The notes: a model not told the origin generated them from the sequence alone. Positions 5,368 through 45,959 are shown, numbered from the stretch's first letter. The stretch is 64,000 nucleotides of DNA from Centroscyllium fabricii (GCA_051313645.2 JBNRSN020000012.1:150598001-150662000); one strand, 5' to 3'. A program made the numbers and translations.

Positions 5368-5444
5368 ATTGGAACGACTTCCAAAGAAGAAAAGCTGCCA
5401 CAGGATCTGGGACCACCAGCCAAAGAACTTTTTAAACAGAAAAC

Positions 5445-9263: not shown

Positions 9264-9305
9264 ACTCTTTTACTATTCCTCCCAGACGGATTCTGGGGGG
9301 AGCTG

Positions 9306-9553: not shown

Positions 9554-9717
9554 AGGTAATGTGTTTTTAGCAATGTTAGCTGAGGGTTAAACGTTGGCCA
9601 GGCCATCAAAAGATCGCCCCTGCTCTTCTTCAGATAGTGCCATGGGATCCTTTACGGGCACCCGAGAGGCCAGATGGGGCCTCCACAAGTCTCATCTGAA
9701 ACACGGCCCCTCCAACA

Positions 9718-13169: not shown

Positions 13170-13469
13170 TGACGTATCATCAATAGTCTAATAAAACTAA
13201 AGACGCGTAGTTACCTTAACTAAAGGCTTTTATTAGCTTACAAAGGAGCTACGCTCCGATCGAACATCAGGTACAGAATGGATGGGGGCAGGTCAGACCC
13301 CACCTATAAGGCACTCACCTGAGGGGAGGAGTTAGAGGTGTGGCTGACCTGACCCCGCGACAGTGTCGCAATACAAAGCAGTGTATCATGCACCCGGCCG
13401 CTATACATACAGGTTAATATTGGGCAACAATATTATGGTGGTAAAAGACTATATATAACGGTTACCACA
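13170..13469 (-). repeat. 3' LTR
   Basis: Direct repeat of 17753-18052. Confidence 0.95.
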
Positions 13470-13488
13470 TTCACCCCTTCTTTGAAAA

Positions 13489-16400: not shown

Positions 16401-17728
16401 TGATAGGGTGTGCGGCCTAGCCTGGTCGACTGTGGCTGAGGCCGAAGTGTGTGTGTTTGTGTGTGAGCCCTCCGCTGGCCGGGGCCGTGCACAAGATGGC
16501 GGCGCCCGTGATCCGCACATGGTAGGCCTCTGTGGACAAAATGGCGGCGCCGGGGAATCGCACATGGCTGGCCGCTGAAGACAAGATGGCGGCGCCGGGG
16601 GTCGCACATGGCTGGCCGCTGCGGACAAGATGGCGGCGCCCATGATTCGCACGCGGCGGGCCGCTATGGACGCGGTGGCGGTGCCCGTGGTTCACACGCA
16701 GCGGGCCGCGGTGGCTGGGTTGGCGGTGCCCGTGATTCGCACGCAGCGGGCCGCGCTGGGCGAGATGCCGGCGTTGGGGGGTCGCACATGGCCGGCCGTG
16801 GTCGAGTTTGGCGTGCCATGGGCGCGGCCGGCCTCTGCCGCATCAGGGTGGGAGACGGGGGCGCTTGTACCCTACCCCCGGACCGTCGCTGGGTCACGCT
16901 GCAGCTGCAGCTTACCTGAGGCCAAGGGCCGGTGTTGGAACTTTCGCAGGCCGCGCTGTTGTACCTGGAGCTGGACGCCGGGGCCGATTTGCAGGCCCTG
17001 GCGTAGTGTCCCTTTTTCGAGCACCTCTCGCAGGTCGCGGTCCTCGCAGGGCATTTCGCCCTTGGGTGTAGTCCCTGGCCGCAGAAATAGCATTTCTTCT
17101 CCGCCGGCGTCTACGCAGCTGCCGCTGCCATTGTGGGGGTCTCGACCCGTTGTGGGGCCGCCCAGGAGTCGAAGGCAGCATGTGAGTTTTGGCCGCCGTA
17201 CGCCTGTACTCTGCGGCGCGCGCCATCCACAGCGTTGGAGAGGGAGATCGCCTCGTCCAGCGTTAGTGTCTCTTTCTCCAGCAGCCGCTGGCAGGCCTCC
17301 GCGGACCTGATCCCCGTTACATAGGCGTCCCGGACGAGGAGATTCGCCTCCTCTTGTGCCGTCCATGGTTTGCAGTCACAGGCCCGGACAAGGGCTTGGA
17401 GCGCCAACAGGTATTGTTCATTGGACTCACCCACTAGTTGTGGTCTGGTCACGATCACATGTCTGGCGTAGACTGAGTGGACCGGGCGCTCGTAGCATTT
17501 CCTCAGTTTCTCCACGGCTTCAGGGTACGTCTTAGCGTCGCCGATGAAGGAGTATACCCGGCTGGAGATCCTGGAAGTGAGAACATGCAGCTTGTTCCCG
17601 TCGGTTGTCGCCTTGGTGGCCTCCATGTAGGCCTCGACGAGACTGAACCAGTGTTCAAAGGTATTGGCGGCGGCTGGGTCCTGTGGACTAATGTCCAGCT
17701 TTTCGGGTTTCACAGCACCGCTCTCCAT
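13489..17728 (-). pseudogene. gag-pol: gag-pol with frameshifts
   Basis: Gag 17728-17111; two CCHC knuckles near 17095-16990; LFDTGS protease; YLDN RT; RNase H; integrase with SDRG and VERENG. Confidence 0.92.
16490..16810. repeat. ~7 tandem 45-bp units between gag and protease
   Basis: CAARATGGCGGCGCC at 16492, 16537, 16582 and 16626, then more degenerate copies; encodes 15-aa Pro/Cys repeats. Confidence 0.85.
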
Positions 17729-17752
17729 TTAAAAATTTTAAGTTAATAAAAT

Positions 17753-18052
17753 TGACGTATCGTCAATAGTCTAATAAAACTAAAGAAGCGTAGTTACCTT
17801 AACTAAAGGCTTTTATTAGCTTACAAAGGAGCTACGCTCCGATCGAACATCAGGTACAGAATGGATGGGGGCAGGTCAGACCCCACCTATAAGGCACTCA
17901 CCTGAGGGGAGGAGTTAGAGGTGTGGCTGACCTGACCCCGCGACAATGTCGCAATACAAAGCAGTGTATCATGCACCCGGCCGCTATACATACAGGTTAA
18001 TATTGGGCAACAATATTATGGTGGTAAAAGAGTATATATAACGGTTACCACA
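17753..18052 (-). repeat. 5' LTR
   Basis: Direct repeat of 13170-13469. Confidence 0.95.
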
Positions 18053-19540
18053 GTGGATAAGTCTCCAGGCCCTGACGAGATGTATCCCAGGCTGCTGGGT
18101 GAGGCTAAGGAAGAGATTGCAGGGGCTCTGACACAAATTTTCAGAACCTCTCTGGCCACAGGGGATGTGCCGGAGGACTGGAGAATGGCCAATGTAGTGA
18201 CATTATTCAAGAAAGGTAGTAGGGATAAACCAGGGAATTACAGGCCAGTGAGCCTGACATCAGTGGTGGGGAAATTACAAGAAAAAATCCTAAGGGACAG
18301 AATTAGTCTCCACTTGGAGAGGTAAGGATTAATTAAAGATAGTCAGCATGGCTTCGTCAAGGGAAGATCATGTCTGACTAATTTGATCGAATTTTTTGAA
18401 GGGGTGACCAGGTGTGTGGATGAGGGTAGTGCAGTGGATGTGGTATACATGGATTTTAGTAAGGCTTTTGATAAGGTCCTGCATAGGAGTCTGGTCAAGA
18501 AGGTAAGAACCCATGTGATCCAGGGCACCTTGGCACAGTAGATCCAAAACTGGCTTAGTGACAGGAGGCAGAGGGTGATGGTCGAAGGTTGTTTTTGTGA
18601 CTGGAAGCCTGTGTCCAGTGGTGTACCGCAGGGATCGGTGTTGGGTCCCTTGCTGTTTGTAGTCTAGATTAATGATTTAGATATTAATGTAAAAGGCATG
18701 ATCAGTAAGTTTGCAGATGACACAAAAGTTGGGGGGTTGGTAAACAACGAAGAGGAAATCCGCAACATGCAGGACGACATAGATGGGCGGAACAGTGGCA
18801 AATGGAATTTAATCCTGAAAAGTGTGAGTTGATGCATTTCGGTAGGTCTAACATGGCAAGGGAGTAGACCATGAATGGTAGGACGCTAGGGAGGACAGAG
18901 GATCAGAGGGACCTTGGTGTGCAGGTACATAGGTCCCTGAAGGCAGCAGGGCAGGTGGATAAGGTGGTTAAAAAGGCATATGGGATACTTGCCTTCATTA
19001 GCCGAGGCATAGAATATAAGAGCAGGGAGGTTATGATGGAGCTGTACAAAACGCTGGTAAGACCACAGCTGGAGTACTTTGTGCAGTTCTGGTTGCCACA
19101 CTATAGGAAGGATGTAATAGCTTTGGAGAGGGTGCAGAGGAGATTCACCAGGATGCTGCCTGGGCTGGGAAACTTCAGCTATGAAGGGAGACTGAAGAGG
19201 CTAGGGTTGTTTTCCTTGGAGCAGAGGAGGCTGAGGGGGGACCTGATTGAAGTGTACAAAATTATGAGGGCAATAGATAGGGTGGATGGAGTGGAACTTT
19301 TTCCCTTGGTTGAGGGGTCAATAACGAGTGGGCATAATTTTAGGGTAAGGGGCAGGAGGTATCGTGGGGATGTGAGGAAGAACTTTTTCACCCAGAGGGT
19401 GGTTGGAGTCTGGAACTCACTGCCTGAGAGGGTGGTAGAGGTGGGAACCCTCACAACATTCAAAAAGCATTTGGATGAGCACTTGAAATGCCACAGCATA
19501 AAAGGCTACGGACCAAATGCGGGAAAATGGGACTGGTATA
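18053..19540 (+). pseudogene. CR1 ORF2 3' part (reverse transcriptase)
   Basis: LKV|DKSPGPD rejoins across the TSD; NYRPVSLTS, QGSVLGP and FADD motifs; several stops. Confidence 0.92.
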
Positions 19541-19613
19541 GACTGGGATTGATGGGTGGCACGGACATGATGGGCCGAAGGGCCTCTTTCTGTGCTGTAT
19601 TACTCTATGACCC

Positions 19614-21996: not shown

Positions 21997-23417
21997 AGCC
22001 CCGCTTTCACTGAGGGCTACGAATATCCCGATATCCCGAATCGTCCCGAATCGAAATTCGTGGCGATTCGGCAAAAAAATGTGAAAATTCGTGGTGGATT
22101 CGGGAGGAGCTACGAATCTGGTACGAATTGACTACGAATTATTCGTGCCGAATGTCAAGAATGGTTTAAGAAACAAGTACGAATTCAAAGAATCAGGTAA
22201 TGCCCTAGTTTCACTGGAGGCTAAGTATGCCAAGTATCCCAAGAATCGTCCAGAATCGAAATCTTGGCGATTCTTGGTGATTCTGCATGTAAATGCGAAA
22301 AATACTTGGTTGAATCTTGGCGATTCTTGGTGAATTCTTGGCGATTCTGGACAAGGTTACGAATCTATCACGAATTATTTTACGAATGAGGTACGAATCA
22401 CTCACGAATCCACCACGAATTGCAAGAATTAATTAAGAATCCACTACGAACTCCACGAATTAGTTACGAATTCTACGAATTAGCTACGAATTATCTACGA
22501 ATGGCATTCGTAGTGCATTCGTGGACATTCGTGGACATTCGTGGTGCATTCGTGGTGCATTCGTGGTGCATTCTTGATTTTGAAAAAATGAAGAATGCCC
22601 AAGAATAGTCAAGAATGCACCACGAATCCACTACGAATCAGTTACGAACGGTAAGAAAGGGTCACGAACGGTAAGAATGGGTCACGAATTGTTTACGAAT
22701 CTATCACGAATTGAAAATTCGTGAACCCTCCTACGAATTTTTTTGACAAACAAAAACTTTCCTTAAAAGTAAAAGAACTCCCGCGAACTACCGCGAACTC
22801 TACGATTCCGCTACGAATCCACTACGAATCTACTACGAATCCACTACGAATTGCAAGAATGACCCACGAATCGGCCAAATTTAAAAATCGGCACGATTCG
22901 GGAATTCGTAGCCTCCAGTGAAACTAGGGCATAAGAATTTAACGAAAAAGGTACGACTCACTTACGAATGTGCCGAATTACTGTACGAATCCACTACGAC
23001 CGATTCGTACTTGATTCGTACTTGATTCGTGGGCATTCGTGCCTGTTTCGTGATGTAATCGGCGTGGGTCCACGAATTTGAGGGAGTCAAGAATAGGCCA
23101 GAATGCAGAAGAAGCGATTACGAATCGGTTACGAACGATAAGAAAGGGTTACGAACGATAAGAAAGGTTCACGAATTGTTTACGAATCATTCACGAATTG
23201 GACATTCGTTAACCCTCCCAAGAAAGTTTTTGACAAGCAAAAACTTTCGTGCCAAATTAACGAAATCACGCGAATTCACGCGAACTGTACGAATGTCTAC
23301 GAATCAACTACGATTCAACTATGAATCATTTACGAATTGCAAGAATTATCTACGAATTTGAAAAATTTCAGATTCGGGACGATTCGGCAATTCGTAGCCT
23401 CCAGTGAAAGCGGGGCA
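21997..23417. mobile_element. PIF/Harbinger-type MITE (outer), ACGAAT-rich
   Basis: TIR GCCCCGCTTTCACTG perfect for 15 bp and extending imperfectly to about 28 bp; TSD TTA. Confidence 0.88.
22201..22931. mobile_element. PIF/Harbinger-type MITE (inner, nested)
   Basis: Perfect 23-bp TIR TGCCCTAGTTTCACTGGAGGCTA; TSD TAA. Confidence 0.92.
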
Positions 23418-23651
23418 TTACAGCTGCTGCAGGGAGAAAGGGGAAGGAGTTCACTGGGACAAATATAGGAACATGCAGCAACATGTTAAAAGGGTGGCCA
23501 CAGAGAAATCAGGGGGAGGAAAAAACAAAGCAGCAGACACGACATATAACAGCAGGGAATTCTTTCAGTATTCGAACAAGAAGAAGGCTGTCAGAGATGA
23601 GGCAAGAATCATAAAAGATGCAAATGGGGCTGAAACAGAGAATGATCACTG

Positions 23652-23889
23652 TGTGGCGGCACACCAAGACTAACGAATCCGCCTCGAGAGCTGCGGGGCA
23701 TAGCCCCGCCCATCGGGTGACGTTATGACGTCACCACATCCCTCGGCGTGATGAGGTCACTAAAGCGGGTCTTTTAAATAAGCCTGCTCCTCGTGTTTCA
23801 GTCTCTTCCTTCCTTACTGTAATGTAATAAACAAGTATTTTTCTGTCTCTCTGGCTCCCTCGTGGTTCTTGGGTCCTGTAAGCGCTACA
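23652..23889 (+). repeat. 5' LTR of copy B
   Basis: Direct repeat of 27845-28082. Confidence 0.95.
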
Positions 23890-23890
23890 G

Positions 23891-23903
23891 TGGTGACCCC
23901 GAC
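23891..23903 (+). promoter_or_regulatory. primer-binding site, tRNA-Trp
   Basis: TGGTGACCCCGAC. Confidence 0.88.
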
Positions 23904-23980
23904 TTGGAACGACTTCCAAGGAGAAAAAGCAGCTACAGGATTAAAGATCAAGCAGCCTCAGGACACTTTAAAAGAAAAAC

Positions 23981-26900
23981 ATGTCTTCAAGGAACCAAGC
24001 TTCTCGAACCCAAGGACTTGGCCAGAACTTCGGGCACAGACTTACCCTACCGGAGTTCTGGGAGCAACGCCCAGCGGCCTGGTTTATGTGCATAGAAACC
24101 AGCTGCCGCACACACGGCGTCCAGGGGGATGACCGCTACGACTTGGTCTTTTCGGCCCTACCGCAATCGACGATCGATCGGATGTGGTCAAAGCTACAGC
24201 GTGTGCCCACAGCAGGCAGGTATGAGTTACTCAAGGCCGCGCTTCTAAAAAAATTTACCCCCTCCCAATTCGAGCGCGACTGCCAGCTCCTTAACTTCCC
24301 CGAACTCGGGGACGCAGACCCATCGGACCTTTGGGGTCAAATGCAAGCGCTCACCGCAGACCCCGCCTCCCTGTTCCGCACCATATTCCTCCTTAAACTA
24401 CCCCGCTCCATCAGACCGGCCCTGGTGACCCTCTGCCACCGGAGCGGGGACGAGCTAGCCGAGGAAGCCGACAGGCTCATGGCGGCCGAGCGCACCCGCT
24501 CCACCACGTGCGACACCAACGCCGCATCCATTTAGCACAACCACTCGCCCCCCAGGTCCAACCCAACGCCTGAACCCAGGGCCCCGCGCCCACCCAGGCA
24601 ACCGCATCCATCAAGCACCGGCTGGTGCTACTACCACACGCGGTTCGAAAATAAAGCGCACCGCTGCGTACAGCCCTGCGCATTTAAGCCACGGCCCGTC
24701 CCAGCCCCCACTATGTCTGTAGGACACACAGGAGCACTGCTCTTTGTCACAGACAGCGGCACAGGCCTCCGGTTCCTCTGCGACACAGGCGCACAGCACA
24801 GCATCGTGCCAGCCTCCCCAGCAGAAGCCAAACAAGGCACCCGGGGCCCGCCACTCGCAGCGGCCAACGGCTCTAATATAAAAACGTACAGCACCCGCAA
24901 GCTCACTATCAAGCTCGCCGGCCACACGTATCACTGGGACTTTGTCACAGCCCAGGTCACTTCACCCCTCCTCGGGGCAGATTTCCTCTGCACCCACGGC
25001 CTGCTGGTCGACATGACCCGGCGCCGCCTGGTCGACATTAACAACATGTCGACCATCCCATGCACCACAGGGCCCGCACTCCTGGCCCACGCGGCGGCAG
25101 AATGCCGCTCCCGGAACTCTGACGCATATGGCACGCTCCTCGCAGAGTTCCCCACCCTTACCAACCCCACGTTCACCGCCCGCACGGCCAAACACGGGGT
25201 AGAACATTTTATTACCACCTCCGGCCCTCCCGTGCATGCCCACGCCCGCAGGCTGGACCCGGCCAAACTGGAGATCGCGCGCACCGAGTTCCGCACCATG
25301 GAGCAACTCGGCATAATCCGCCGCTCCAACAGCCCCTGGGCCTCTCCCCTCCACATCGCCCCCAAGCCGGGCGGGGGTTGGCGCCCCTACGGCAACTACC
25401 GCCGCCTAAACAACGCCACCACCCCGGATAGGTACCCCGTACCCCACATCCAGGATTTCTCCGCCCGACTAGCAGGCTGCACGATCTTCTCTAAGATCGA
25501 CCTGGTGCGTGGCTACCACCAGGTCCCGGTGCACCCGGCGGACATCCCCAAAACAGCCGTTATTACCCCCTTCGGCCTCTTCGAGTTCCTTAGGATGCCC
25601 TTCGGACTCAAAAACGCGGCCCAGGCCTTTCAGCGCCTCATGGACTCGGTCCTACGGGACTTGAAGTTCATTTTCGTCTACTTGGACGACATCCTCGTGG
25701 CCAGCACCTCCCCCCAGGAACACCTCCTGCACCTCAGGACCCTGTTCCAGCGCCTGGTCGAACACGGCCTCATATTAAGCCCCTCAAAATGCAAATTCGG
25801 CCTTGAGACCATAGACTTCCTCGGCCACCGCATTGCCAAAACCGGGGCCATACCCCTGCCCTCCAAGGTGCAGGCAGTTCAGGAATTCCCCCGCCCGCAC
25901 TCCATTAAGGGGCTGCAGGAATTCCTCGGGATGGTTAATTTTTATAACCGCTTCATCCCAGGAGCAGCCGCCCTCATGGCACCCCTATACCAGGCCACAC
26001 GCGGGCAGTCCGGCAAAACTGCGGTCGAGTGGACGGCCGATGCCACCACCGCCTTCACCGTAACCAAAACCGCCCTGGCCAACGCCACCCTACTAGCCCA
26101 CCCCAGGCCCAACGCCAGAGTGGCACTCACCACTGACGCCTCCGACCACGCTGTCGGGGCCGTTTTTGAACAGTGGACCGGCAACTCTTGGCAGCCCCTG
26201 GCCTTTTTCAGCCGGCAACTTCGGCCCCCAGAGATTAAGTACAGCGCCTTCGACAGGGAGCTCCTCGCTCTCTACCTCGCAGTGCGCCATTTTCGCTTCC
26301 TCTTGGAGGGCCGTCCCTTCACAGCCTTCGTCGACCACAAGCCACTCATCTTCGCGATGGCTAAGGTCGCCGAACCCTGGTCTGCCAGGCAGCAGCCCCA
26401 GCTCGCGGCCGTGTCGGAGTTCACTACCGACATCCAGCATATCTCCGGCCGCGACAACGTGGTTGCTGACTGCCTATCACGTCCCGCAATTAACGCCGCC
26501 CAAATGGCGGTCGATTACACCAAGCTGGCAGCAGACCAGCTGGCCGACCCAGACCTGCTCGACCCAGCAGCAAACCTCCCTGGCCTACAGTTGGCCAAAA
26601 TCGCACATGGCCCCGCTGCCACCGTCGTCTGCTGCGACGTTTCCCTACCGCAGCCCAGACCCGTCGTCCCCCGCGCATGGAGGCGACACATTTTCGAAAC
26701 CCTCCATGGCCAGTCCCACCCCGGCACCCGCGCGTCCATTAAACTAATTTCGGCCCGTTTCGTGTGGCGCGGCCTGCGCAAAGATGTCCGCGCCTGGACC
26801 AACTCCTGCATTGCCTGCCAGCGCTCCAAAGTGCACAAGCACATCAGGGCACCGCTGGAAACCTTCACCGTGCCGGCCAGACGCTTCGACCACGTCCACA

Positions 26901-27805
26901 TCGATCTCGTCGGGCCACTACCGCCATCCCAGGGCCACACACACGTCATGACCATGGTCGACCGCAACACCCGCTGGTCAGAAGCAGTCCCCCTCGTTGC
27001 TACCAGCACAACAGACTTGGCCAGGGCGTTCATCGCCACCTGGGTCGCCCGTTTCGGCGTGCCCACCGACATCACATCGGACAGAGGACCCCAGTTTACG
27101 TCAGCACTATGGGCGGCCATCGCCCGCGACCTCGGGGTAACTCTACATCGAACCACCGCATACCACCCACAATCTAACGGGCTCTGCGAACGGTTCCACC
27201 GCTCCATGAAAGCATCCCTGCGGGCCAGCCTCAAAGACGCATCATGGACCGACAGTCTCCCATGGGTACTACTCGGACTGCGCTCGGCAGTCAAAGAAGA
27301 CCTAAACGCCTCGGCAGCAGAACTCGTCTACGGCCAAACTTTAACAGCGCCGGGCGAATTCCTCGCCGAGCCAAACGCTCCCTGGTCGGCCGACCAGTTC
27401 CTAAAAGACTTTGCCAACCCGGCACGAGCGTTCAAACCCATACCAGTGGCCCGGCACGGAGAGCCGGCGGCACGTGCACCGGACGGCATTAAAAACGCCA
27501 AGTACATGTTCGTCCGGCACGACGCCCATCGCTCGCCACTGCAACCGACCTACGACGGTCCCTACAGAGTGCTTCGGGCGGGAACTAAAGCTTTTCAATT
27601 ACAGCTGGGCAACAGAACAGAAACTGTCTCTATAGACCGGCTAAAACCGGCACACGTGATAGCGGGTGACGCAACAGTCCCCGCCCAACCACCTCAACGC
27701 GGACGCCCTCCCGCACCAACACCCGCCCACACTCCACCGCAGAACAAGGAGCTGCGCACGACACGTGCCGGCCGCACCTTACGGCCACCACAACGCTACA
27801 CATAG
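23981..27805 (+). pseudogene. gag-pol: single-frame gag-pol with one premature TAG (24533-24535)
   Basis: ORFs 23981-24535 and 24713-27805 are in the same frame, and the gap reads open through WCYYHTRFENKAHRCVQPC; PR, RT (YLDD), RH and IN all present. Confidence 0.93.
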
Positions 27806-27844
27806 ACTCTTTTATCCTCTCAGACGGATTCTGTGGGGGAGCTG

Positions 27845-28082
27845 TGTGGCGGCACACCAAGACTAACGAATCCGCCTCGAGAGCTGCGGGGCATAGCCCC
27901 GCCCATCGGGTGACGTGATGACGTCACCACATCCCTCGGCGTGATGAGGTCACTAAAGCGGGTCTTTTAAATAAGCCTGCTCCTCGTGTTTCAGTCTCTT
28001 CCTTCCTTACTGTAATGTAATAAACAAGTGTTTTTCTGTCTCTCTGGCTCCCGCGTGGTTCTTGGGTCCTGTAAGTGCTACA
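27845..28082 (+). repeat. 3' LTR of copy B
   Basis: Preceded by PPT GGGGGAG. Confidence 0.95.
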
Positions 28083-29545: not shown

Positions 29546-30600
29546 ATGGGAGCTGCAATGGATGGAGGTGTCATCCTGCTCTATCACATTCGCAGGGCAC
29601 AGAGACGCCGAGAGAGAGTAGCAATTATGGCCAGGTGGAAGAGGGCCAACAGGCATCTGCAAAGGAGACCTTACGCTCCCAGGGTATTCCGCCAGCAATT
29701 CTCTGAGCTAATATGTCTGAGGAGCAGTGTTTGCGCAGGCTGCCCTTCAGGAAGGAGGTGGTCACTGAGCTCTGCCACCTGCTTCAGCCAGACCTGCAGC
29801 CTCAACTGAGGACCAGGATGTCTCTGTCGGTGGCAGTGAAGCTAACTGTGGCTTTCAACTTTTATGCCACCAGCTCATTTCAGGCAGCTACTGGGGACAT
29901 AGCTAATATCTCCCAGTTTGTGGCATTGCTGCATCCGTCAGGTGACAAATGCACTCTTTAAAAGGAGGTGAGAGTATATATTGTTCCCCATGACCCCGGA
30001 CAAGCAGCGAGATCGCAAAATGGGCTTTGCGAGGATAGCGGGATTCCCCATGGTGCAGGGCACCATTGACTGCACGCATGTGGCTTTGCATGCTCCACAT
30101 GAGAATGCCAAGGATTTCCGCAACACAAAGGGCTTCCATTCCCTAAACGTGCAGTTGGTGTGTGACCCACTATCCAGGCAGCAGCCACGATGCCTTCATA
30201 CTGCACCAGACTTCTGTGGCAGACCTCTTCCAGGCACCGCATCACCCAGGTGGCTGGCTTCTTGCTGACCTGGGATATCCTCTGAGCCCCTGGCTGATGA
30301 CACCACTCCGTATGCCCAACACCCCTGCTGAGCAGCGATATGAGAGCCATCAGCCTACCAGGAACATAATTGAGCACACAATCGGCGTGTTGAAACAACG
30401 GTTCTGCTGTCTGGACCATTCTGGAGGAGCCCTCCAGTACTCGCCTGAACGAGTCTCCCACTTCATGGTTGTGTGCTGCATGCTGCATAATATTGCTATC
30501 CTCAGGGCACAGCCAATGCATCACCAGAGGAGGAGGAAGATGATGAGGGGGAGGATCATCAGCAGCACCAAGGCGGGAGGGATGTGGAAAGTGGAAGGGC
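29546..30600 (+). pseudogene. HARBI1-like Harbinger transposase (frameshifted)
   Basis: GFPMVQGTIDCTH, KGFHSLNVQLVCD, PGSSHD, LLADLGYPL, RNIIEHTIGVLKQRF and CCMLHN motifs. Confidence 0.93.
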
Positions 30601-30604
30601 CGTC

Positions 30605-33600
30605 TGTTGAGTCCGCGCTATGTGTCTCATAGAATAACGGACTAGACTTCAGTGTATGAAACAAGGAGGTGTTTATTCTCCAATTACAGAGTATGGAACG
30701 TGAACTGAAACTGAACATATCGCTCCACGCACAAACTAGTGGTTGGCCGAAGTACTACAGTATTATGGCACCACATAAAGTAGTGCCCAGCATAATAACT
30801 TAAAGGCACATACACAACATTCCTCCCTTCTTAATTCAATTGTACAGGTACGATGATAAGTACACAAGGGGGTACAACAGTTAACTTTTGTTACATACAT
30901 TGTTCGGTGCCAGTTAGTCTCTTACAACCATGAACGTACATTTATCACCTTGCTTATGAGTTCCATTTCTTTTCAATCTTCGTCACACAGTCCCTTTCTT
31001 AACAACATTGTACATCAACTCTATACATTTTTAACAATTTTAACATTTTAACGATTTCTAGTTTTTCTACGATGGTGTTTCTTTGCTTTCGCGGTCGGCT
31101 CCTTGACCTGATGGCCTTGCTCCTCAGCTGTCCCAAACAACAACCCCAGCTTCCCGAGTTCAGCATTCATGCAGTCGAGTTTCATTTCAACCTCAACTTT
31201 ACCTTCCGACAATAGCACTTTCTCCTGCTCCATTACAGCCAGTTCCTCCTGAAGTCCATCAACCTCTTCAATTGACTGTTTAAAAAGGTTCTGCACTGCT
31301 AGCAGGTTCTTTTCAGTCTCTTGCTGCTTGACTATTGCAACCAAGCACTTTTCTTCCAAGTCAGTGGAGAGCTGCTCCAACTTGCTCTCAGTCAGTTGCT
31401 TTAGAGCTCAACTGTATATGAAGATCCTTAATTTGTTCATTGGCATCATCCAAATAATCTTGCAGTGCTCTGTTCTTTTCACGCAACTCCTGTATCAGAG
31501 CATGAAGTTTGTCCATTTCCTGGTGCATCTCCTCCAGTGACTCATTTCTGTCTTGCAATGCAGCCACTGTAACTTTGGAGGTTTGTAGCTCAGCTTGCAG
31601 ATATTTCACTTGACCTTCAGAACTAATCTGGAGACAACTGATCTCCTTATCCTTGACATCAGTCTTATCGTTCAATTCAAGTTTGGGTATATCAGAAGCA
31701 GAGCCACCATCAGGGACTGAGCAACTTTCTGAAGCAGCAGTCCTATTGGAAATCACAGGAAGGTTATTTAGAAGACCCTTCTTTTTATTAACGTTCTTCC
31801 CAGATTTAGAGTCGACTACTGGGCTCTGAGTACTGTTAGCCAAGTCCTTGCCGCCCCTTTGTGTGTCTGGGGTGCTTGCCGATATCAGTGATGGAGGTGC
31901 GTAACTCAGTCCAGCACCATAAGGCAACGTGCCGTCTTTTGGTTCAGCCAATTCGGCACCAACGGTCACGTTACTCAAAGTCTCTCCTTCAGTTGTCTGA
32001 AGTGCTTCGTTCAAGCATGATCGGTTGTGTTGATACTCCCACTCACTTTGTGCAGTCCGCAACAATTCAATTTGGTCTCGGGCTTCCTGCAGCCCCTGAG
32101 TCAGACGGGAAATATGCATCTGGTGTATATCCAGTCTGTCCAACGTGGCTGCATCATTTTCCTCAACCTCTATGGGTAAGTCATGGATTGAGTTCCAACC
32201 AATATGGATCTTTTTTATCCATTTACGCCCCAGGAGTAGTGATCCCCCGCTCTTCGAAACATACAGATACAGTCCCTTTACTTTCTTGTCCTTATATTGG
32301 ACTGTTACAGGCAGTCTCCCCATTGTCCGGAACTTCTGTCCCATATATGTTTTCAAAATAACCGGGAATTCTTCTAAAGGTACACCTCTGAATGCCTGTC
32401 TCTTAAGTGGTTTGGCAGTTCATCCCCAAATACACAGTTTTTAGACAGTCTTCTGAGTTCCGTTAGGTACTCTGACTGTGACTCTCCTTTTTGTTGGTCC
32501 CGTTTAAAGAACTTGAAGCGTTCTGCTATAAATGATGGTTTGGGGTTTAAGTTTGCTTTTAAAATGTCTATGATCTGTTGTAGCGTTTTGTCCACTGGCT
32601 TATCTGGGGACACCAGGGTTCTCATCAGTGACTGCCTGTACTTGGCAATAAAAGTCAAAGCGTTCTCGGTATGCCTCCCAGTCTTCCTTTTCTAGTTGGA
32701 AGGCCCCAAATGTTTCTGATTTTGCCATGGTTAAATTTCCCAATGGCGTCCAAAATGGCATCTTTTCCCACCTTTTTGCTTCTCTTCCGGCGCTTTTCCC
32801 GCCTCAAAATGGCATTTTCCTGCCTTTTTGTTTCTCTTCCGGCGCTTTTCCCACCTCAAAATGGCGTTTTTCCGGCCTTTTTCTTTCCTTCCCCACTGAG
32901 TTTCCAATTACCCGCGATCGCTGGGAAGGATTGCGCTCTACCTGCACTCGCCCGTTGTCCTTTGGCTGGAGGACCACACCTGATCCTCGACAGCCTCCGT
33001 GTACGACTGCCTCTGCCACGTTGGCTCTCCGCTGTCGATGCCCGACGTCAGACTGCTGCTGCCGTTGCCTGCCCCTCGGCCGACGCCCGATGTCCGACTG
33101 CCGCTGCAGCACTGGCCCTGCCTCGAGGTCGACGTCCGATGTCCGACAGCCGTTGCTGGGCTGGGTCCCCGCGTTCTGCGGCCTACCTGCCGTTGCTGGG
33201 CTGGGTCCCCGGTTTCTGCTGCCTTCTGCTGCCGACGCTATTGCCAACGCTTCTCCCGCGATGTTGAGGAGCTGGCTGTGCTGATAGTGCCAACGCCACT
33301 CCCGATGTTGGAGTGCTGGCTGTCTCTGTTCCCTCTGCGTCACTGGAGAATCGCTGCCATTCCCTCTTTTGGAGTGCAGGGTGTGTCGTTGCAGTCGACA
33401 GTCGCCGGTAAGAAAAAAATAATCTTTCTTTTTCTTGTTGACCGATTACACTGCTGTGGATTCGACCGACCTCATCGCCATTGTTGAGTCCGTGCTATGT
33501 GTCTCATAGAATAACGGACTAGACTTCAGTGTATGAAACAAGGAGGTGTTTATTCTCCAATTACAGAGTATGGAACGTAAACTGAAACTGAGCATATCGC

Positions 33601-33706
33601 TCCACACACGAACTTATATACACTAGTGGTTGGCCTAAGTACTACAGTATTATGGCACCACATAAAGTAGTGCCTAGCATAATAACTTAAAGACACATAC
33701 ACAACA
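30605..33706 (-). mobile_element. non-autonomous Mag-like LTR element (Gag-PR-coiled coil, no RT/RH/IN), internally deleted
   Basis: LTRs 30605-30819 and 33482-33706; TSD CCGTC; PBS TGGCGATGAGG (tRNA-Ser-like); PPT AAGAAGGGAGGAA. Confidence 0.9.
31048..32728 (-). pseudogene. gag remnant, protease C-terminal half and long coiled-coil tail
   Basis: EDWEAYRERF, PDKPVDKT and IAERFKF gag motifs; LKTY..LLLGRKW protease end; heptad-rich E/Q/L/K tail; an ACTG duplication near 31390 explains the ORF split. Confidence 0.8.
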
Positions 33707-34045
33707 CCGTCCATCAAAGGCTCACAGCAAGCGACTTCTAGGTGTCTGGTGAGGAAAAGACCTCTGCCATTGAGAACAACCTGAATGAAACCAACCCGCT
33801 ACCCCTAAGCAGGTCAAAGCATCAATGATGGCAAACACCAAACATGTCCATTTTGAATAAAAACAAGCCTTTATTTGACAAACTGTCAGCTTTCTGAATG
33901 CAAAATAATAGAAATAAACCCCAAAAAAACAGTCATTAACATAACTGGCTCTCACAACCTGGAGATTATGCCCAAAACAGTAAAACACTTGTGACCATGA
34001 ACCTCAGCCTCTAAGAAAACAATGAACAACCTTTATTCACACCTC

Positions 34046-35875
34046 CTACTTTTTGCTGTTTGATGGTGATCTCCTTCCCTTGTGCACTTCCCCCCTTCCC
34101 ACTCTACTGCTCCTCCGTAATGGGAACCCAGTGGCTGCAGCAAGGCTGGTGGAAGGCTGCTGATTCTCCGACCCTGAAACTGCCGATGTCTTCGAAGGTC
34201 GTCCTCGATCAGCTCTGGGCCTGGAGGGCCCGGCTGCAGACTGCTCCAACTCTGCATGGGTGGCAGCAGTCTGTCCTACAGGTGGGGGCAAGTGCAGTGG
34301 AGAAGTGACAGTGGTGGCAGCAGGAATGCTGTCATCTTGAGAGAGGACAGCACCTCCCTGCTCGAACAACACACTGGCACTCCCACGGGCCCATCATCCG
34401 GAGCAATCTGCTCGAGCACAGAATGCTGGCCTGCTGCGGCGCGTTGAGAGCCCCGGGTAATTGTGTCCAAACTAGACAGGATGACAGCAGTCAGTGCTCG
34501 CATGGCCTCAATGAGCATGCCAGCAGCCACTGACTGCATTGCAGCACTAAGCATCTGCATGGCATCTCCCTGTGCTGCAGCGAAGTGCTCCAGACTCCTT
34601 GCCATTAACTCCATGGATTCAGGCAACCTTCCCACTGCACCCATGAGCTCAGTGTGCCTTTGCCGTGTCTTGGCACTCATTTCAGCGAGGATCTGCTCCT
34701 CCTCTGCGGTCAGTGCAGCAGGAGTCGATGACCCACTCTCCCTCCGGGGAGAAAGCTCCCGAGTTTCCCTCCCCCCATCACATTGCTGCAGGCCGCTGGG
34801 GCCTGGAGCATCCCTCTCATCAGACCATTCCCCCCTGCTCCCCTCCAGGGAAGGCGTATTCCCAGTGTGGGCATGGGCTTCCTCGGGAAAGGGTGGCGGT
34901 GATGCCCCGGCTTCCTCTTCCTCCTCATCTTCAGCTTCCCTCCCACTGGCAGCTTGAGGGCCCGTCTCCTCACCTGGTGAATCACCATCTGAAAGCAGGG
35001 AGGTACAAGAGTGGCTTTAGTGTGAGGACAGGGTGGCAGAAAGGGAGCAATGAGTGCAGCCAAATAGTTATTTGGATGGAAAGTGACAAAGGCTGGTGTT
35101 GTGAAGAACAAGAGGAAGGAGAGAGGACAAGAAGGTGATGACCTCACCATTGCTGTCCAGAACAGGGTCAGTATCTCCAGTGGCAACGGGAACAGTCACC
35201 CGGCTTCCCATCGTCCACTGAACACGCAGCTCCAAATCGCTGAGGGGTTGGAGCTGAGGCCACACTCCACCCATCCGTTGCTGTTGTTGCCCATTGTGCG
35301 ACAGTTTGGCCTGCAAGAAAAAGGACGGCGTCTGAGCAAAAAGACAGCAATGATGTAATCTGATGTGCCTCCCACGGTTGAATAGCCCTTCCAATGTGCA
35401 GCATTGATGTAATCTGATGTGCCTCCCATGGTTGAATAGCCCTTCGAATATACAGCAATTATGTAATCTGATGTGCCTCCCATGGTTGAATAGCCCTCAC
35501 TGCATGCAAAGTGTGGAATGTGCGTGTCTCTTTGATAAAAGGGACATAGGTGCTGAATGAGCGTTGGCATTGGGGTTTTAGAGCCTCTGGCCACAGAGTG
35601 AGTTTGAGATGGAGAGATGTTGACAGGAAGCCACTCACCCTGACAACCCTAGTGAGGTCGTTGAACTTTTTCCTACATTGGATGTGGGTCCAGGGGACCT
35701 TGCTCCTGGAGGTAACGAGTTGAGCCACCTCCCTCCACACTCTTCTGTATTCGCGTGGCACAGGTCTCCTGCCACTCTCTGGGAAGAGAAGCGCTCTTCT
35801 ATGCTCCACTGCGCCAACCAGAACCTCCAAGGCCCGCTCGGTGAAATGCTGCGCTCGCTCCCTGGTCCTCTCCAT
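34046..35875 (-). pseudogene. Harbinger Myb/SANT (NAIF1-like) DNA-binding gene, 3 exons: 35875-35639, 35310-35148, 34988-34046
   Basis: FTERALEVLV..VWREVA..QCRKKFNDL; GT-AG introns with matching phases 0 and 1; acidic region follows; probable frameshift near 34370. Confidence 0.85.
35345..35500. repeat. three 54-bp tandem units in intron 1 of the Myb/SANT gene
   Basis: Units start at 35345, 35399 and 35453. Confidence 0.9.
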
Positions 35876-37528
35876 GGCTGCAAAGTGTAGTCGCAGGTCT
35901 GTCCAGGCCGAGAATCAAGGCTCCAATGAGCAGGGTGTGGCTGGAGAGCAAGGTAGACCCTCCCCCTTTGAGATCTGGCCGGCGCCAGTGTGTCTGTTCA
36001 GTCAGTAACTGACAGGTCCAGCGCTGCGCCCGCGCGTTGAGGTCGCATCTCAGTTCTCGGCCTTTGCACCTTAAGACTAGTGTGCAGCACCTGATTTAGT
36101 GCTGCAATCACCTCCAGGGGTGAGAAAACCCAAGTTTGCTGTTGGTGCCGCTAATTTATGCCACGCACTAAATTTAGCGCTGCGCCGAATATAGCAACCC
36201 AAACGTGGCAATATCGAATTTTTCCCCCCTAGTACTCTTAGTGGATCCAATTCTCAATATGCCTGATCAATGTAAAGTAGCAAGCAACAAAGACAATAAC
36301 ATGCTGAACTGCATAGCCATAACAGTAGATTAATATTGACAGGAACTCGTGCTCCGGACGGAGCGGTCGTTATGATGGCGCGCTGCTTCAAATCTAATTT
36401 GAAATTATGCTTCACCGAATTATTTTGAATTTAAATTTAATACATCGGCCTCGGGACGTCAGCAGAGAGTCTGGCCGATGGTTTAAGTTTAAATTTAGAT
36501 TTAATTTTTAAGTTTATCTTTGAGTTATGGGATTTTTGATGGTTTCGGGAGACCTGGCCATAGGCCTCGGACCTCCGATTCTTTGCTCACGGGGTGCGGG
36601 AGTTCGTGGATCCGTTGGGCCCGTTCTTGGGCCGAAGGGCAGCCCCCGGTCGGCCGTTTCTTTAGTCCCGAGGTGCGGGAGCTCGAGGATCAGCTGGGCC
36701 CGTTCTCGGGCCGAAGGGCAGCTCCCCGGTCGGCCATTTCTTCAGTCCTGAGGTGCAGGAGCTCGTGGATCAGCTGGGCCCGTTCTCGGGAAAAAGGTTG
36801 GAAATCGGGCCTCCTATTCTTCGTTCCCAAATGCTGGAGTTCGTCAAATTCGGCGGTTCATTGGTTGATCTGCTGTAATTCAATCTTCACTTCCGGAGTA
36901 CGAGAGTCTGGCGGTTCGCTGGGCATGTTCTCGGGCCGAAGGTCGGGCACTGGACTCCATTCTTCACTCACGGAGTGCGGGATTTTTACTCCCATAACCA
37001 TCAAAAACCTCGATTCAGCAGTGCATCGCAGTAAAGGAAGAAGGTTAACAACATCGAATTAAAGAGCCGGAGCATTAGCGGGCCCTCAACGATGGCGCCG
37101 GAGAATGGCTTGACGTCTTTGTTATGTTTGTGTTCTGAAGAATGAGGCTTGATTTAATAAACAAGTAATCACTTTATTTTCATAGCAAGTTCAGCAGCTT
37201 GCAGCTTGCAGCAGTCTCACAGAATCCAACATGTCTGCTTAGTTTCAGTTTCCCTTGTACCCAACCCTGTACTCTGAACTCTGAACTCTGAACTCTCCAC
37301 CTCGTGGAACTCTCCACCTAGTGGACAGAACGTGACCACATCTAATCATTACATCCCCCTTTCCTTGAGGCAAAATGCAATACAGGTAAACTAACAAATC
37401 ACAGGTGTCAGTTATCTGAACCATTTCTCATTGAAATGTTATCTTGCAACATACACCAATTCTCCATATATGTGGCATGAATTAACCTGTAAGAAACATC
37501 AACAAATTACACACTTTGTTTACAATAA

Positions 37529-40500
37529 TCAACAATTAGCAATCAGTCTTTCGGGTTTCCTGATTTCTCTTGTGGATTTCCTTACCACAGGTTCACTTGG
37601 AGTGTTTGTGTTGGTGTTACAGTCTGTAGGGGTTGGAGCGATGGACTGAGACTCACTGTGTGCTTCACTGAGCTCTCGAACAGTCTCTGGTGGAGTCTTT
37701 AACAAACTGCGGCGATTGCGTCTGAGGATTTGTCCTTCCTTGGTCCTCACAGTGAACGACTGTGGAGCTACTTCTTGAAGAACAGTGGCTCTTGTCCTCC
37801 ACCCATCTGCATCCTCTATCCTGACTGTGTCACTGCTTGACAGTGATGGAAGGTGCTTGGCTGTCCTGTCGTAGAATGACTTCTGTTTCATTTTCTGTTG
37901 TTTTAGCTTGTAGTCTAGCTTTGGACATTTCTTTGGTTTTGAGTAACTCGGCAGTGTAGTACGCAGCTTTCGATGCATCAGCAGCTCAGCCGGTGATAGC
38001 CCGCACTCGAGAGGTGATGCTCTGTAGCTGAGTAGAGCAAGGTATGGATCTGAGTCACCGTCAGCTGCTTTCTTTAGGAGTTGCTTGAGAATGTGAACTC
38101 CCTTTTCAGCTTTCCCATTGGACTGTGCATACAGAGGGCTTGACGTGACATGCATGAAGTCATACTGCTCTGCAAACCTCTGCCAGTCTGCGCTGTTGAA
38201 ACATAGGCTGTTGTCACTCACCACTGTGTTTGGAATGCAATGTCTGGCGAAGATGGATTTTGTGTGCGTTATGACACAGGCTGACGTTGTGTTTGATAGC
38301 AATGCCATCTCAGGGAAGTTTGAGTAATAGTCAATGACCACTAAATAGTCTTTACCCTTGAGATGAAACAAGTCCATTCCTACTTTTTGCCATGAAGCTG
38401 TTGGCACATCAGCTACCACCATAGGTTCTTTGCTTTGCTTGTTTCTGTGTTTCTGGCATGTGTCACATTTGCTTATTAGTGTCTCAATGTCTTTGTTAAT
38501 TCCAGGCCAGAAGACTGTGTCTCTCGCCCTCCTTTTACACTTTTCGACACCGAGATGTCCTTCATGGATCCTGTCCAGTATGTCCTCTCTCAACTCTCGT
38601 GGAATGACAATCCTGCTTTTCTTCAGTAACATTCCATCGACTACACTGAGTTCACTTCTGATATGGTAGAACAGTGGACAGGAACCCACCGGCCATCCTT
38701 CATCCATGTTTTGAATGACACGTTGTAGCTCTGTGTCTTTTGCTGTTGCTTCAGCTATTTGTCTGGACTTAGTGTCTGACACAGGCAGCGTAGCAGACAC
38801 CAAGTTCACATGGCTTTGAACATCCTCATCAGTTGCACTCACACAGTTTCCAGTAGTTGCTCTTGAGAGTGCATCGGCGAGTATCAGGTGTTTTCATGGT
38901 GTGTAGATCAATTCAAAGTCGTATCGCTGCATTCTCATCATTAGACGTTGAATCCGTGGGGACATTTCGTTTAGATTCTTTTTGATGATGGTGACTAGTG
39001 GACGATGATCTGTCTCTACCGTAAAAGAGGGTAAGCCATATATATAGCTGTGGAATCGCTCTAGGCCATACGCCAGTCCTAGGCATTCTTTTTCGATCTG
39101 AGCATAACGACGCTCAGCTTCAGTCATGGCCCTGGATGCATAGGCTACAGGTTTCCAGTGCTCGCCCTCAGCCTGTAAGAGAACTGCACCAATTCCGTCC
39201 TTGGAGGCGTCTGTCGACACTTTGATCCTTTTCGTGTGGTCATAAAATGTCAACACTGGCACGGTGGTCAGTGTGTTTTTGAGCTTTTTCCACTCATTTT
39301 CATGTTTGTCTGTCCATTTGAACTCAGTCTCATTGTGCAGGAGTTCACGGATGCATGATGTTTTCGCAGTCAAATTGGGAAAGAATTTACCTATGAAGTT
39401 GACCATCCCAATGATGCATAGCACACCTGTCTTGTCCGTGGGCCTGGGCATATTCTGTATGGCATGTATTTTTTCTTTGTCCGGCTGGACACCTTGTGCA
39501 GAGAGCCTGTCTCCCAGAAAGATGAGTTCTTGAACTCCAAACTGGCATTTGCTCTTGTTGAGTTTCAGTCCATATTTTCGTATGCGCTCCATCACTTTGT
39601 TCAGCCTCTGATTGTGCTCTTGGACTGTACAGCCCCAGATGATGATGTCATCAATGTAGACCCGAACGCCACCCAACCCCTCGATGATCTGTTCCATTGC
39701 TCTATGAAATATTTCAGGTGCTGATTTTATTCCAAAAGGCAGTCTGAGAAAGCAATATCTGCCGAAGGGCGTGTTAAAGGTGCAGTATTTGGTGCTGCTT
39801 TCGTCCAATTTTAGTTGCCAGAAGCCTTGTGATGCGTCGAGCTTTGTGAAGTAACCGGCGCCCGCCATTTCGCTGGTGATTTCTTCACGTGTGGGTATTT
39901 GATAGTGTTCACGCTTTATGTTCTCATTCAAATCTTTTGGGTCCATACATATTCTCAACTCGCCATTCTTTTTCTTTGTGGCCACCATCGAGTTCACCCA
40001 ATCTGTAGGCTCCTCTATCTTCTGTATCACACCCAGCGTGGTCATCCTATCAAGCTCTTTCTTTAGGCGGTCTCTCAGTGGTGCTGGGACTCTGCGTGGA
40101 GCATGCACCACTGGCTGTGCGTTTTCTTTCAGCTGGATTTTATATGTGAATGGCAGTACACCAAACCCCTTGAAAACGTCTTCAAAGTTTTGTACTATAG
40201 AGTCAATGGAGTCACTTGATGTACTCACGGCTGTGTTGATGCGATACACTCTTTTCACCAGCCCTAAACCTTCACATGATTTATCACCCAGCAGTGATTC
40301 GCATCCTTCAGCCACAACAGAGAAGAGTAGATGATGCACTTTTTCTTTCACTGTGATGTTCAGTCTGCATGTGCCTAAACACTGAATAGGCTGTCCATTG
40401 TAGTCTTTCAGTCCTGACATTTTCCTCTTTATTTGTGGCTTATCTTTCATTTCCTTGATATCAGACATGCTTATGAGATTTGCTTTTGCACCAGTGTCTA

Positions 40501-41473
40501 ATCTCATTGTGACTAGAGTCCCGTTTATTTGCAATGGTGCTATCCATTTATCTTCTTTAGTGGCATTATTTTCTTTTTGTTGCTCATTTTCTGACTCATT
40601 TTCACAGTTCACCATGCCAAAGAAAACCGTGTCACTGAGATCAGTTTCCTCCACTATGTTTACATATCTTCCTTTCTTCCCCTTTTTTCTTTTTGAGAAG
40701 CATTGTCTAGCAAAATGGTTTTTACCCTGGCAATTTGAGCATTGCTTATCAAAGGCTGGGCACTGTTTTGGCTTGTGCTGTGAGCCACAGTGCATGCAGT
40801 TGAACATCCCATCGTCTGCTCGCTGTGCAGGCCGGGTCTGTGGGCGCCTCCTCCCCTGGTATGACACCGCACCAACCGCTGCCGCACTGTCAATCACGTG
40901 CGCCGTTGTGGTTGCCGCCATTTCGCAGAACGTTTTCACTTGCTTGTGAGACAGTTCACTTGCCTGGCAGATCCTGATGGCTGCTTCCAGTGTCAGCTCC
41001 ATTTCCCTCAGTAGCCTTGCTCTGATCTTTTTATCCTCCACACCAAAAACGATCTGGTCCCTGATCATGGAGTCTTTTAGTGTTGCAAAGTTGCATGACT
41101 GCGCTTTTAGCCTCAAGTCAGTCAGAAAGCTATCAAAGGGCTCGAGCTGTTCCTGCATCCGAGATCGAAATACGTATCGCTCATACATCTCGTTCTTCTT
41201 TGGAGAGCAGTGAGCATCAAATTTATCAAGCACTACATCCAGTTTTTCATTATTATTTTGATTGGCAAACACGAACATATTAAATACTTCCATGGCCTGT
41301 GGCCCTGCTATTGTTAGCAATAACGCTACCTTCCTAGCATCCAGCTTTGTTTCCAGTCCCATGGCCGCAACGTAGAGGCGGAACTGCTGTTTGAAGGTGC
41401 GCCAATTTCCATCGACGTTCCCCGTTAGTTTCAAACTCTCCGGTGGTTTTAAATCCATGATGTTGTCGCTCAT
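37529..41473 (-). pseudogene. gag-pol: single-frame gag-pol with one TGA (38896-38894)
   Basis: Two in-frame ORFs joined as YTP*KHL (canonical PGK); two CCHC knuckles, LDTGA, YIDD, RNase H, HHCC and DDE. Confidence 0.93.
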
Positions 41474-41499
41474 TTGTTATGTTTACTCACTTAGATTTT

Positions 41500-41512
41500 A
41501 CTCCTGGTACCA
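41500..41512 (-). promoter_or_regulatory. primer-binding site, tRNA-Leu
   Basis: TGGTACCAGGAGT directly after the 5' LTR. Confidence 0.8.
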
Positions 41513-42039
41513 TGTTATGTTCGTGTTCTGAAGAATGAGGCTTGATTTAATAAACAAGTAATCACTTTATTTTCATAGCAAGTTCAGCAGCTTGCAGCTT
41601 GCAGCAGTCTCACAGAATCCAACATGTCTGCTTAGTTTCAGTTTCCCTTGTACCCAACCCTGTACTCTGAACTCTGAACTCTCCACCTAGTGGAACACTC
41701 CACCTAGTGGACAGAACGTGTAACCACATCTAATCATTACAGTCTTGTTGCGGGTTCCGGGCGTGCTATGTACCTTATGTTCTTTTGTTGTTGGTTGATG
41801 TGTAGCGCATGTGGAATAGCAGTACCCATTTCACTGTCTGAGTTTTGTTCGGTTATGAGACAATAAAATTTACTTACTTACTTACTTATAGTGCTCTGGT
41901 CAGACTACAGTTTGAATACTGTGTCCAGTTCTGGTCACCATGACATTGGGAAATATTCAAGCATTGGAAACTGTACAGAGCAACCACGAGACTGATCCCT
42001 CATATTAATCTGAGGTATGAGGAAACACTTTGGAAACTT

Positions 42040-43294: not shown

Positions 43295-44000
43295 CATTTC
43301 AATGAAGGCGAGCACGCAGGTGCAGCAGGCGGTTAGGAAGGCAAATGGTGTGTTGGCCTTCATATCAAGAGGGTTCGAGTATAGGAATAAGGATACCTTA
43401 CTACAGCTGTACAAGGCACTGGTGAGACCACACCTCGAGTATTGTGTACAGTTCTGGTCGCCTCGCCTGAGGAAGGATGTTCTTGCCATGGAAGGAGTGC
43501 AGCGGCGTTTCACCAGGCTGATTCCTGGAATGGCAGGAATGACCTACGAGGAGGATTATGTAGTCTGGGCTTGTACTCGTTGGAGTTTAGAAGATTGAGA
43601 GGCGATCTCATTGAGACGTATAAAATTCTGAAAGGTCTGGACAGGTTAGATTCAGAGAGAATGTTTCCAATGGCGGGGGAGTCCAGAACCAGGGGCCACG
43701 GTCTAAGAATAAGGGGTAAACCATTTAGGACAGACATGAGGAAGAATTTCTTCACTCAGAGAGTGGTGGGCCTGTGGAATTCCTTGCCACAGAGGGCGGT
43801 GGAGGCCAGTTCATTAAACATATTCAAGAGGGAATTGGATATATTTCTTCAAGCTAAAGGGATTAAAGGTTACGGAGAAAAGGCAGGGACGGGGTACTAG
43901 CTTGCTAAAGATCAGCCATGATCTCATTGAATGGCGGAGCAGGCTCGAAGGGCTGAATGGCCTACTCCTGCTCCTATCTTCTATGATTCTATGATTCTAT
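43295..44000 (+). mobile_element. 5'-truncated CR1 LINE
   Basis: LYKALVRPHLEYCVQFW and FFTQRVVGLWNSLP; tail (TTCTATGA)n. Confidence 0.92.
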
Positions 44001-45440: not shown

Positions 45441-45959
45441 TTGTTCTGTCAATAACAAACAAGAAGGTTCACGCTTACTGAAAAGTTGTTGAATGACTTA
45501 CAACAGCCTGGAAATATTGCCAGATTTCCTTAAGGGAAGTGTTGGTAGAGTTGCGTTGCTCATTGTCAGCTTGTTTGAAGTGAAGACCCTCATATCTTTT
45601 CTCGCCCTTCTGCCCCCCTCTGCCCCCGCACCCGTACAGACATTAAGACTGATTCCTACCTACTGTTGCCTTTTGAAAAATAAACGCATGTAGAAATTAT
45701 AATCATTGCCTGTGCTACAGGTGTTTAAACCATTTTTATGGTGTGCTGAAATGGGTTCAGGGTCACAAGGGGCTACTTTGGCACAAACCGAAGCCAAGTT
45801 CTAAAGTAGAACTGCGTTAAGCACATAACATTTGAGTTCATCGTTGCCTTTGGGTCATTGTTACTGTACATGCATTTGTGTATTTATGTTTTATTAATTT
45901 TTTGTAAACTCTGTGTGTGTCTGTGTTCCATCTGTTGCCCCAGCAGGGGATCTGATATG

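Follow-up and report, generated by a model that had tools for sequence, protein, structure and literature searches.

E26 (gag-myb-ets) is a helper-dependent defective transducing retrovirus in which in-frame fragments from two host genes stand in the place of pol. Among retrotransposons, the maize element Bs1 (Elrouby and Bureau 2001, 2010) is described as present in 1-5 copies, with one of its three donors out of frame (PMC5131818, PMC7264820). LTR-mediated retrocopies of animals were reported from fly, mosquito and zebrafish as well as from chicken, mouse and human (Tan et al. 2016), and the same account gives partial, multi-gene and poly(A)-less pieces as the marks of LTR template switching (PMC5131818). 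In the diamondback moth, Pxyfem retrocopies yield piRNAs against their parent gene (PMC9674220).

The element described here lies at 30605-33706 on the minus strand of the window, that is, the whole stretch of 64,000 nucleotides of Centroscyllium fabricii DNA that was analysed. Like Bs1, it is an LTR element in which parts of several unlinked host genes are joined in a hybrid frame that is recopied as a unit; unlike the plant element as described, its family belongs to vertebrate Ty3/gypsy, has both identified donors in frame, retains a protease and apparently reaches far more copies. With the retrocopies of Tan et al. (PMC5131818) it shares partial mRNAs between discontinuous arms, multi-gene chimeras and non-autonomous spread. 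Those retrocopies are described as young and few per genome, whereas the present chimera is old (26-41% divergence), amplified and found in variants, and the species list given there includes no sharks (PMC5131818). Multi-copy partial host-gene cDNAs within retroelement sequence are also a trait of Pxyfem (PMC9674220); the divergence of the captured pieces from their parents may be too high for silencing of that kind.

The Mag lineage of Metaviridae resembles the 30605 element in Gag and protease and in a 5-bp target duplication; a second element of the window, at 49095, has a pair of adjacent CCHC knuckles and lacks a gag-pol frameshift, as described for Mag (PMC5408684). Unlike Mag, the 30605 element lacks reverse transcriptase (RT), RNase H and integrase and has a host-derived tail instead. 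It also differs from E26 in that env or any sign of an extracellular stage is absent, and in that what was captured is a linker region and a stalk instead of intact effector domains.

Structure of the element

The original prediction had claimed a second LTR element at this place, and the sequence bears it out: two LTRs with ends TG..CA, which agree at 208 of 215 aligned bases, a primer-binding site-like TGGCGATGAGG, a purine tract and a CCGTC target duplication were all found at 30605-33706, the full set of marks of an LTR retrotransposon insertion. The protease end LLLGRKW..GWNSI and the C-terminus KKHHRRKTRNR are both present, as had been reported. The layout, in the direction of the element, is as follows.

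33707-33711, no strand: target-site duplication CCGTC, right copy (sequence comparison of flanks)
33482-33706, minus: 5' LTR, 225 nt, TG..CA (208/215 identical to the 3' LTR)
33470-33480, minus: primer-binding site-like TGGCGATGAGG after the 5' LTR (motif match)
32729-33469, minus: long 5' leader with short internal repeats (sequence)
32396-32728, minus: Mag-like Gag, N-terminal part, broken by frame changes (weak PNMA match)
32395-32396, minus: deletion junction of this copy, Gag to protease (tblastx; contig loose ends)
32189-32395, minus: aspartic protease, C-terminal half (database matches)
31985-32188, minus: in-frame 68-residue segment, source not found (without usable database match)
31676-31984, minus: captured host ZNF608 piece, residues ~611-720, native frame (76/103 to Heptranchias)
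31400-31675, minus: captured HMMR/RHAMM coiled-coil stalk, residues 181-283 (64/92 to Chiloscyllium XP_043559088)
31177-31389, minus: HMMR piece resumed past the frame break, residues 288-358 (42/71 identical)
31048-31176, minus: final 42 codons with the end KKHHRRKTRNR (31083-31051), then stop (sequence)
30820-31047, minus: 3' UTR with the polypurine tract at its end (sequence)
30605-30819, minus: 3' LTR, 215 nt (pair of the 5' LTR)
30600-30604, no strand: target-site duplication CCGTC, left copy (flank comparison)
29972-30604, plus: Harbinger-type transposase remnant that holds the element in its end (DDE_Tnp_4, E 3.6e-22 and 7.8e-6)
49095-51813, plus: second pol-less element, used as comparator (LTRs 243/254 identical, target duplication GCTAC)

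The primer matching TGGCGATGAGG is presumably tRNA-Ser, and tRNA genes were not found in the 64-kb window. At 29972-30604 and 34276-35016, the Harbinger-type remnant is split by the insertion, and beyond it runs a 246-aa minus-strand frame, which we take as a possible second ORF of Harbinger and which had no match in Pfam.

The Gag-PR plan, as originally proposed, is not intact in this copy. Gag is frame-broken and jumps from its middle to the second protease half near 32395, where the copy proved by tblastx to be shorter than the 49095 element by ~560 nt, and both zinc knuckles as well as the protease catalytic motif are gone. The 49095 element has gag and protease in one frame, with two adjacent CCHC knuckles and an intact DTG protease motif, followed by a 183-aa open tail. 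In the 30605 element, the matches of two full-length relatives are confined to Gag and the protease end, and in the 49095 element to Gag-PR, whereas in the positive control, the 37120 element of the window, one of the two matches over residues 6-1291. Hence neither pol-less element has RT, RNase H or integrase, none of which was found in them by Pfam either. By the similarity of its Gag and protease, the 30605 element would be classed as Mag-like Ty3/gypsy.

Origin of the tail

Measured from stop to stop, the two ORFs of the tail are 343 and 119 aa long. When residues 60-343 of the longer frame served as query, eight proteins were returned, all ZNF608, with sharks on top. The exhaustive search returned 314 proteins, and among the 150 listed were 2 ZNF608, 15 HMMR-like proteins matching residues 241-342 and 133 that matched the protease end. 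Eight of the 15 HMMR-like matches were tested against Pfam and all eight passed the HMMR_N cut-off; the names in the source records are HMMR/RHAMM. The first Pfam HMMR_N matches in the tail, below threshold, had been taken for generic coiled coil, and the exhaustive search proved them real. The ZNF608 piece (31984-31676) is identical at 76 of 103 residues to Heptranchias ZNF608 from residue 611, just after a C2H2 finger, and holds no known Pfam domain. The HMMR part is identical to Chiloscyllium HMMR (XP_043559088) at 64 of 92 residues in 31675-31400 (residues 181-283) and, past the frame break, at 42 of 71 in 31389-31177 (residues 288-358).

Identity of the ZNF608 piece amounts to 72-74% in sharks, 66% in a ray and 45-51% in tetrapods; for the two HMMR pieces it is 70% and 59% in sharks and 59% and 38% in coelacanth. 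Since the identity of both captured pieces drops in coelacanth, bony fish and tetrapods, the donors are judged to be the own genes of a cartilaginous fish.

The two pieces abut directly at 31676/31675, where the donor proteins are alike over ~10 residues at the protein level, a resemblance compatible with a homology-guided switch. Each donor is read in its native frame, in phase with the protease. The two fragments are internal to their mRNAs and lack poly(A) and a 3' end, and, as in Bs1, these partial host coding pieces sit between discontinuous arms of one LTR element. Intron loss is likely in the HMMR piece, because its 178 codons run uninterrupted and mouse Hmmr is described with 18 exons (PMC7226759); isoform comparison gave no exon boundary within the captured part. 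Exhaustive and further searches returned no source for the 68-residue segment (Atlas scores at most 0.81, chance level), and protein searches detected none for the last 42 residues.

The description of the tail as largely coiled coil is right for the HMMR stalk part and fails for the 103 of ~380 tail residues that derive from ZNF608. As this part shows no heptad signal, the tail is predicted to be only about half coiled coil. The frame break noted earlier near 31390 is real, in that the two ORFs are collinear within one HMMR stretch (to 283, from 288); the tandem ACTG duplication offered as its cause found no counterpart, as no four-letter row occurs there among the 8 indel rows with a share of at least 15%. 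Two metagenome loci, L001 (5001-5171) and L002 (140-337), resemble the HMMR-derived coiled coil at 35-37% over 57-69 residues and were judged generic. Viral contigs gave no match.

Evidence for a multi-copy family

Contigs from three studies, in four runs (X1, X2, X5 and X9), were placed at 80% likeness on 30400-33481; of the 2006 loose ends 24 were shown, of the 76 joints 15 and of the 45,138 pieces 32. All 30 bins were covered in all four runs, of which those that match best may stem from the source of the window itself. At sites within the ZNF608 piece, 30-36 contigs were counted in X1, 27-31 in X2, 9-11 in X5 and 12-14 in X9. Summed depth over 31224-32150 reached 20,000-69,000 in X1, with single listed contigs at 12-32 (the sum is not a copy number), and this high-depth pattern was repeated in all four runs. 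A single-copy host gene cannot give such contig counts and summed depth, and the element thus appears to be multi-copy, with many diverged copies that carry the captured pieces. In X9, the HMMR part and the 68-residue segment are covered by diverged contigs with depths of 57-147, most other listed pieces having a depth of 2-5. The many diverged contigs that both captured pieces have in each of the four runs, together with the element's own target duplication, mark a secondary retroposition of the chimera.

Other copies keep the Gag/protease stretch that the 30605 copy lost, as shown by loose ends at 32396 (27, 26, 10 and 5 contigs), which by eye continue into the missing Gag stretch. Extra letters near 31518 in an X9 contig of depth 102 resemble 11 HMMR codons absent from the 30605 copy. 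At 32710, loose ends of 36, 27 and 11 contigs in three runs lead into another leader and Gag start, a variant that could represent a sister subfamily or a helper. Summed depth in X1 falls to 4,487 at the protease-tail junction (32151-32253) as against 33,393 and 79,845 alongside, similarly in the other runs, and depth in the Gag bins is 2-4 times that in the bins of the tail. Hence some relatives may carry pol or another tail.

Some copies have internal skips in the tail, at 31568-31749 (180 nt) and 30928-31290 (361 nt). The first removes whole codons and spans the donor junction, which is crossed by one contig each in X1 and X2 joining 31568 to 31749, weakly, as the short side measures 22-23 letters. 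None of the listed contigs spans the whole element.

Open frame and divergence of the captured pieces

No stop codon occurs in the captured codons. Under a neutral null on the host proteins (2000 draws each), the power of which depends on how much divergence is the element's own, the probability of no stop was 0.18-0.24 at 10% divergence, 0.09-0.11 at 15%, 0.03-0.04 at 20% and 0.005-0.01 for the whole 31%; taken by itself, the ZNF608 piece gave 0.34-0.53. The two indels relative to host ZNF608 are both whole codons and, as far as the indel table shows, common to other copies; no indel row with a share of 15% or more falls inside this piece.

The captured pieces differ from shark proteins at 26-41% of residues. 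Shark ZNF608 orthologues are 87-95% identical to each other, and the branch of the captured piece measures 0.32 as against 0.01-0.07 for these orthologues. As the LTR difference of 3% explains just a few points of this divergence, most of the change in the ZNF608 piece is estimated to have arisen during replication of the family. The open frame is suggestive of selection to translate through the tail, and the fast drift argues against a retained ZNF608 or HMMR function.

Comparison with the 49095 element

A block of 58 nt in the leader (32996-32939) has 78% identity to 49490-49546 (0 of 500 shuffles as high), and the LTR starts of the two elements are alike (1 of 500). The 13 nt under KHHR (31082-31070) equal 51356-51368, a match reached by 0 of 500 shuffles in a region chosen after it had been seen; in the unbiased region downstream of the protease, two 13-mers are common to both elements, as in 32-42 of 3000 shuffles. 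These short cis blocks make a common ancestor of the two families plausible.

Alignment of the tails, recommended earlier as a check, proved impracticable: the tail proteins do not align, and 92 of 200 shuffles score as high as the tail DNA. The 49095 tail matches neither ZNF608 nor HMMR, and no donor was found for it in searches that included a word-seeded one, the type that missed HMMR in the 30605 tail. The 3' UTR motif TAAAATGTTAA is present in both elements as had been stated; it starts at the stop codon in the 30605 element and ~35 nt past the stop in the other, and the likeness of the whole 3' UTRs is at chance level (48 of 500 shuffles as high).

The protease halves of the pair are 41% identical, the median of the database matches being 39%, and the pair score is third-best. 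The proposed Gag/PR phylogeny, run here on 71-72 columns of the protease, placed the pair both ways. In the tree of 123 rows (the window pair plus 121 of the 133 matches, with 62 or more aligned residues), the pair falls in one five-row group with an unstarred SH-aLRT of 94. In that of 40 rows (the pair plus the 38 best-scoring of the 121 rows) it stands apart, joined in 1% of bootstrap trees, and forcing it together is not rejected (AU p 0.64). Among the 133 protease matches, 69 end within 70 residues and 21 are without the searched motif; in the other 43 neither tail was seen, and nearly all enter a pre-RT linker (by eye; Pfam on 24), so that no wider class came to light. Since the 30605 tail is composed of shark ZNF608 and HMMR and the protease halves are only 41% identical, this tail would postdate the split of the families.

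KHHR was found in 0 of 149 database matches checked. Expected to be conserved among copies, the peptide is not fixed within the family: three extra bases lie inside its codons (place 31075) in 41-58% of depth across the four runs. The DNA motif could act as a cis signal, or it could be a relic.

Genomic neighbourhood

Full-length gypsy elements lie at 13170-18052 and 37120-41741 (both minus strand; LTRs 95-99% identical). The cis blocks of the 30605 element's 3' end are absent from both, which are therefore not the obvious helper; a helper must exist somewhere, and none was found. Another gypsy family is present as copies at 5109-9554 and 23649-28082 (86% identical over 4471 nt); in the latter, gag is followed by a stop and then by a PR-RT-RH-IN frame of 1089 aa. 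A related RT fragment (~70%) lies at 62666-63541. CR1/L2-type endonuclease and RT frames of 188 and 737 aa occupy 45898-48616 (plus), with decayed relatives near 18135-19610 and 43303-43887. A 288-aa frame at 58967-59830 (plus), with a signal-peptide-like stretch, several Trp/Cys, a Thr/Pro-rich end and no Pfam match, could be a surface or envelope-like fragment. A short TACGAA-rich repeat array with two blocks of ~486 nt was observed at 22381-23418.

Proposed origin and alternative explanations

We consider it probable that the 30605 element is a decayed copy of a multi-copy, pol-less Mag-like family that arose by Bs1-like multi-gene capture and whose frame was kept mostly open by selection. 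An ancestral particle would have packaged host mRNAs, and RT would have left the element for ZNF608 mRNA as its template, moved on to HMMR mRNA and returned to the element, so that host fragments took the place of RT-RNase H-integrase; expression of HMMR is described as high in gonads and dividing cells (PMC7226759). With LTRs, primer-binding site and purine tract kept, an autonomous relative could copy the chimera in trans. As the copies show in part, the family would then have spread and diverged with the long Gag-PR-X-ZNF608-HMMR frame mostly open. Translation through the tail would have been selected, most likely for a generic property and not for ZNF608 or HMMR function, such as a soluble coiled-coil extension cleavable by the protease or an RNA shielded from nonsense-mediated decay. 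The 30605 copy would afterwards have lost ~560 nt of Gag/PR and gained its frame breaks.

The capture may be real and the open frame incidental, the host pieces being a drifting neutral stuffer that sets RNA length; this is possible, though we regard it as the less likely course. The long branch of the ZNF608 piece implies that host-type constraint is gone, the piece lacks a known domain, deletion variants of 180 and 361 nt exist, and at 10% divergence a stop-free frame is far from rare under the neutral null. Against such a stuffer speak the native frame of both donors, in frame with the protease, the restriction of indels relative to the host to whole codons except for one break in the 30605 copy, and the 183 codons that are likewise open past the protease in the 49095 family. 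It is improbable that the element was defective beforehand and received the host pieces as processed pseudogenes made by LINEs or through DNA recombination: the CR1/L2-type RT ORF at 46403-48616 attests LINE machinery, but the pieces are internal mRNA fragments without poly(A) or 3' end, fused directly and exactly where pol is absent, and LTR template switching is described as leaving pieces that are partial, come from several genes and lack poly(A) (PMC5131818).

A single conserved Gag-PR-coiled-coil class, with tails and KHHR end homologous and functionally conserved, would agree with the common overall plan, the 13 identical bases under KHHR, the shared leader block and LTR start, the absence of KHHR from the database matches checked and a single protease clade that the AU test does not reject. 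Of this class as originally proposed, the non-autonomous, multi-copy state and the shared cis blocks stand. The homology of the tails does not, as they are unalignable and that of the 30605 element consists of pieces of shark ZNF608 and HMMR; an extra codon within KHHR is present in about half of the depth, and neither tail occurs in the 43 protease matches with 70 or more further residues. Conservation in this strict sense is therefore very improbable. That the chimera arose only once, at this locus, or is an artefact of assembly is barely credible: no listed contig covers the entire element, but all 30 bins are covered in four runs of three studies, diverged X9 contigs reach depths of 57-147 against 2-5, and the X1 and X2 contigs joining 31568 to 31749 cross the donor junction, weakly in view of their 22-23 letter side.

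More tentatively, and with considerable doubt, the proposed capture may belong to a wider pattern, in which pol-less Mag-like elements of sharks were selected for a coiled-coil extension of Gag-PR, gained more than once and from different sources, that aids co-assembly with and takeover of helper particles or localisation in dividing germ cells. If true, a selfish element co-opting host protein parts for its own spread would be domestication in reverse.

Significance

Our principal finding is that a Ty3/gypsy family which is amplified in a vertebrate has captured pieces of more than one gene. No published report of the 30605 family was found in mainly open-access literature, outside Repbase and Dfam. 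The animal LTR-mediated captures so far described are young and few per genome, and the multi-gene classic, Bs1, is a plant element of 1-5 copies in the accounts cited above. In these genomes, matches that resemble ZNF608 or HMMR may be carried by transposons. With two host pieces in frame, an old and amplified family of this kind in a vertebrate makes it possible to test from extant copies who benefits from such captures, the element, the host or neither.
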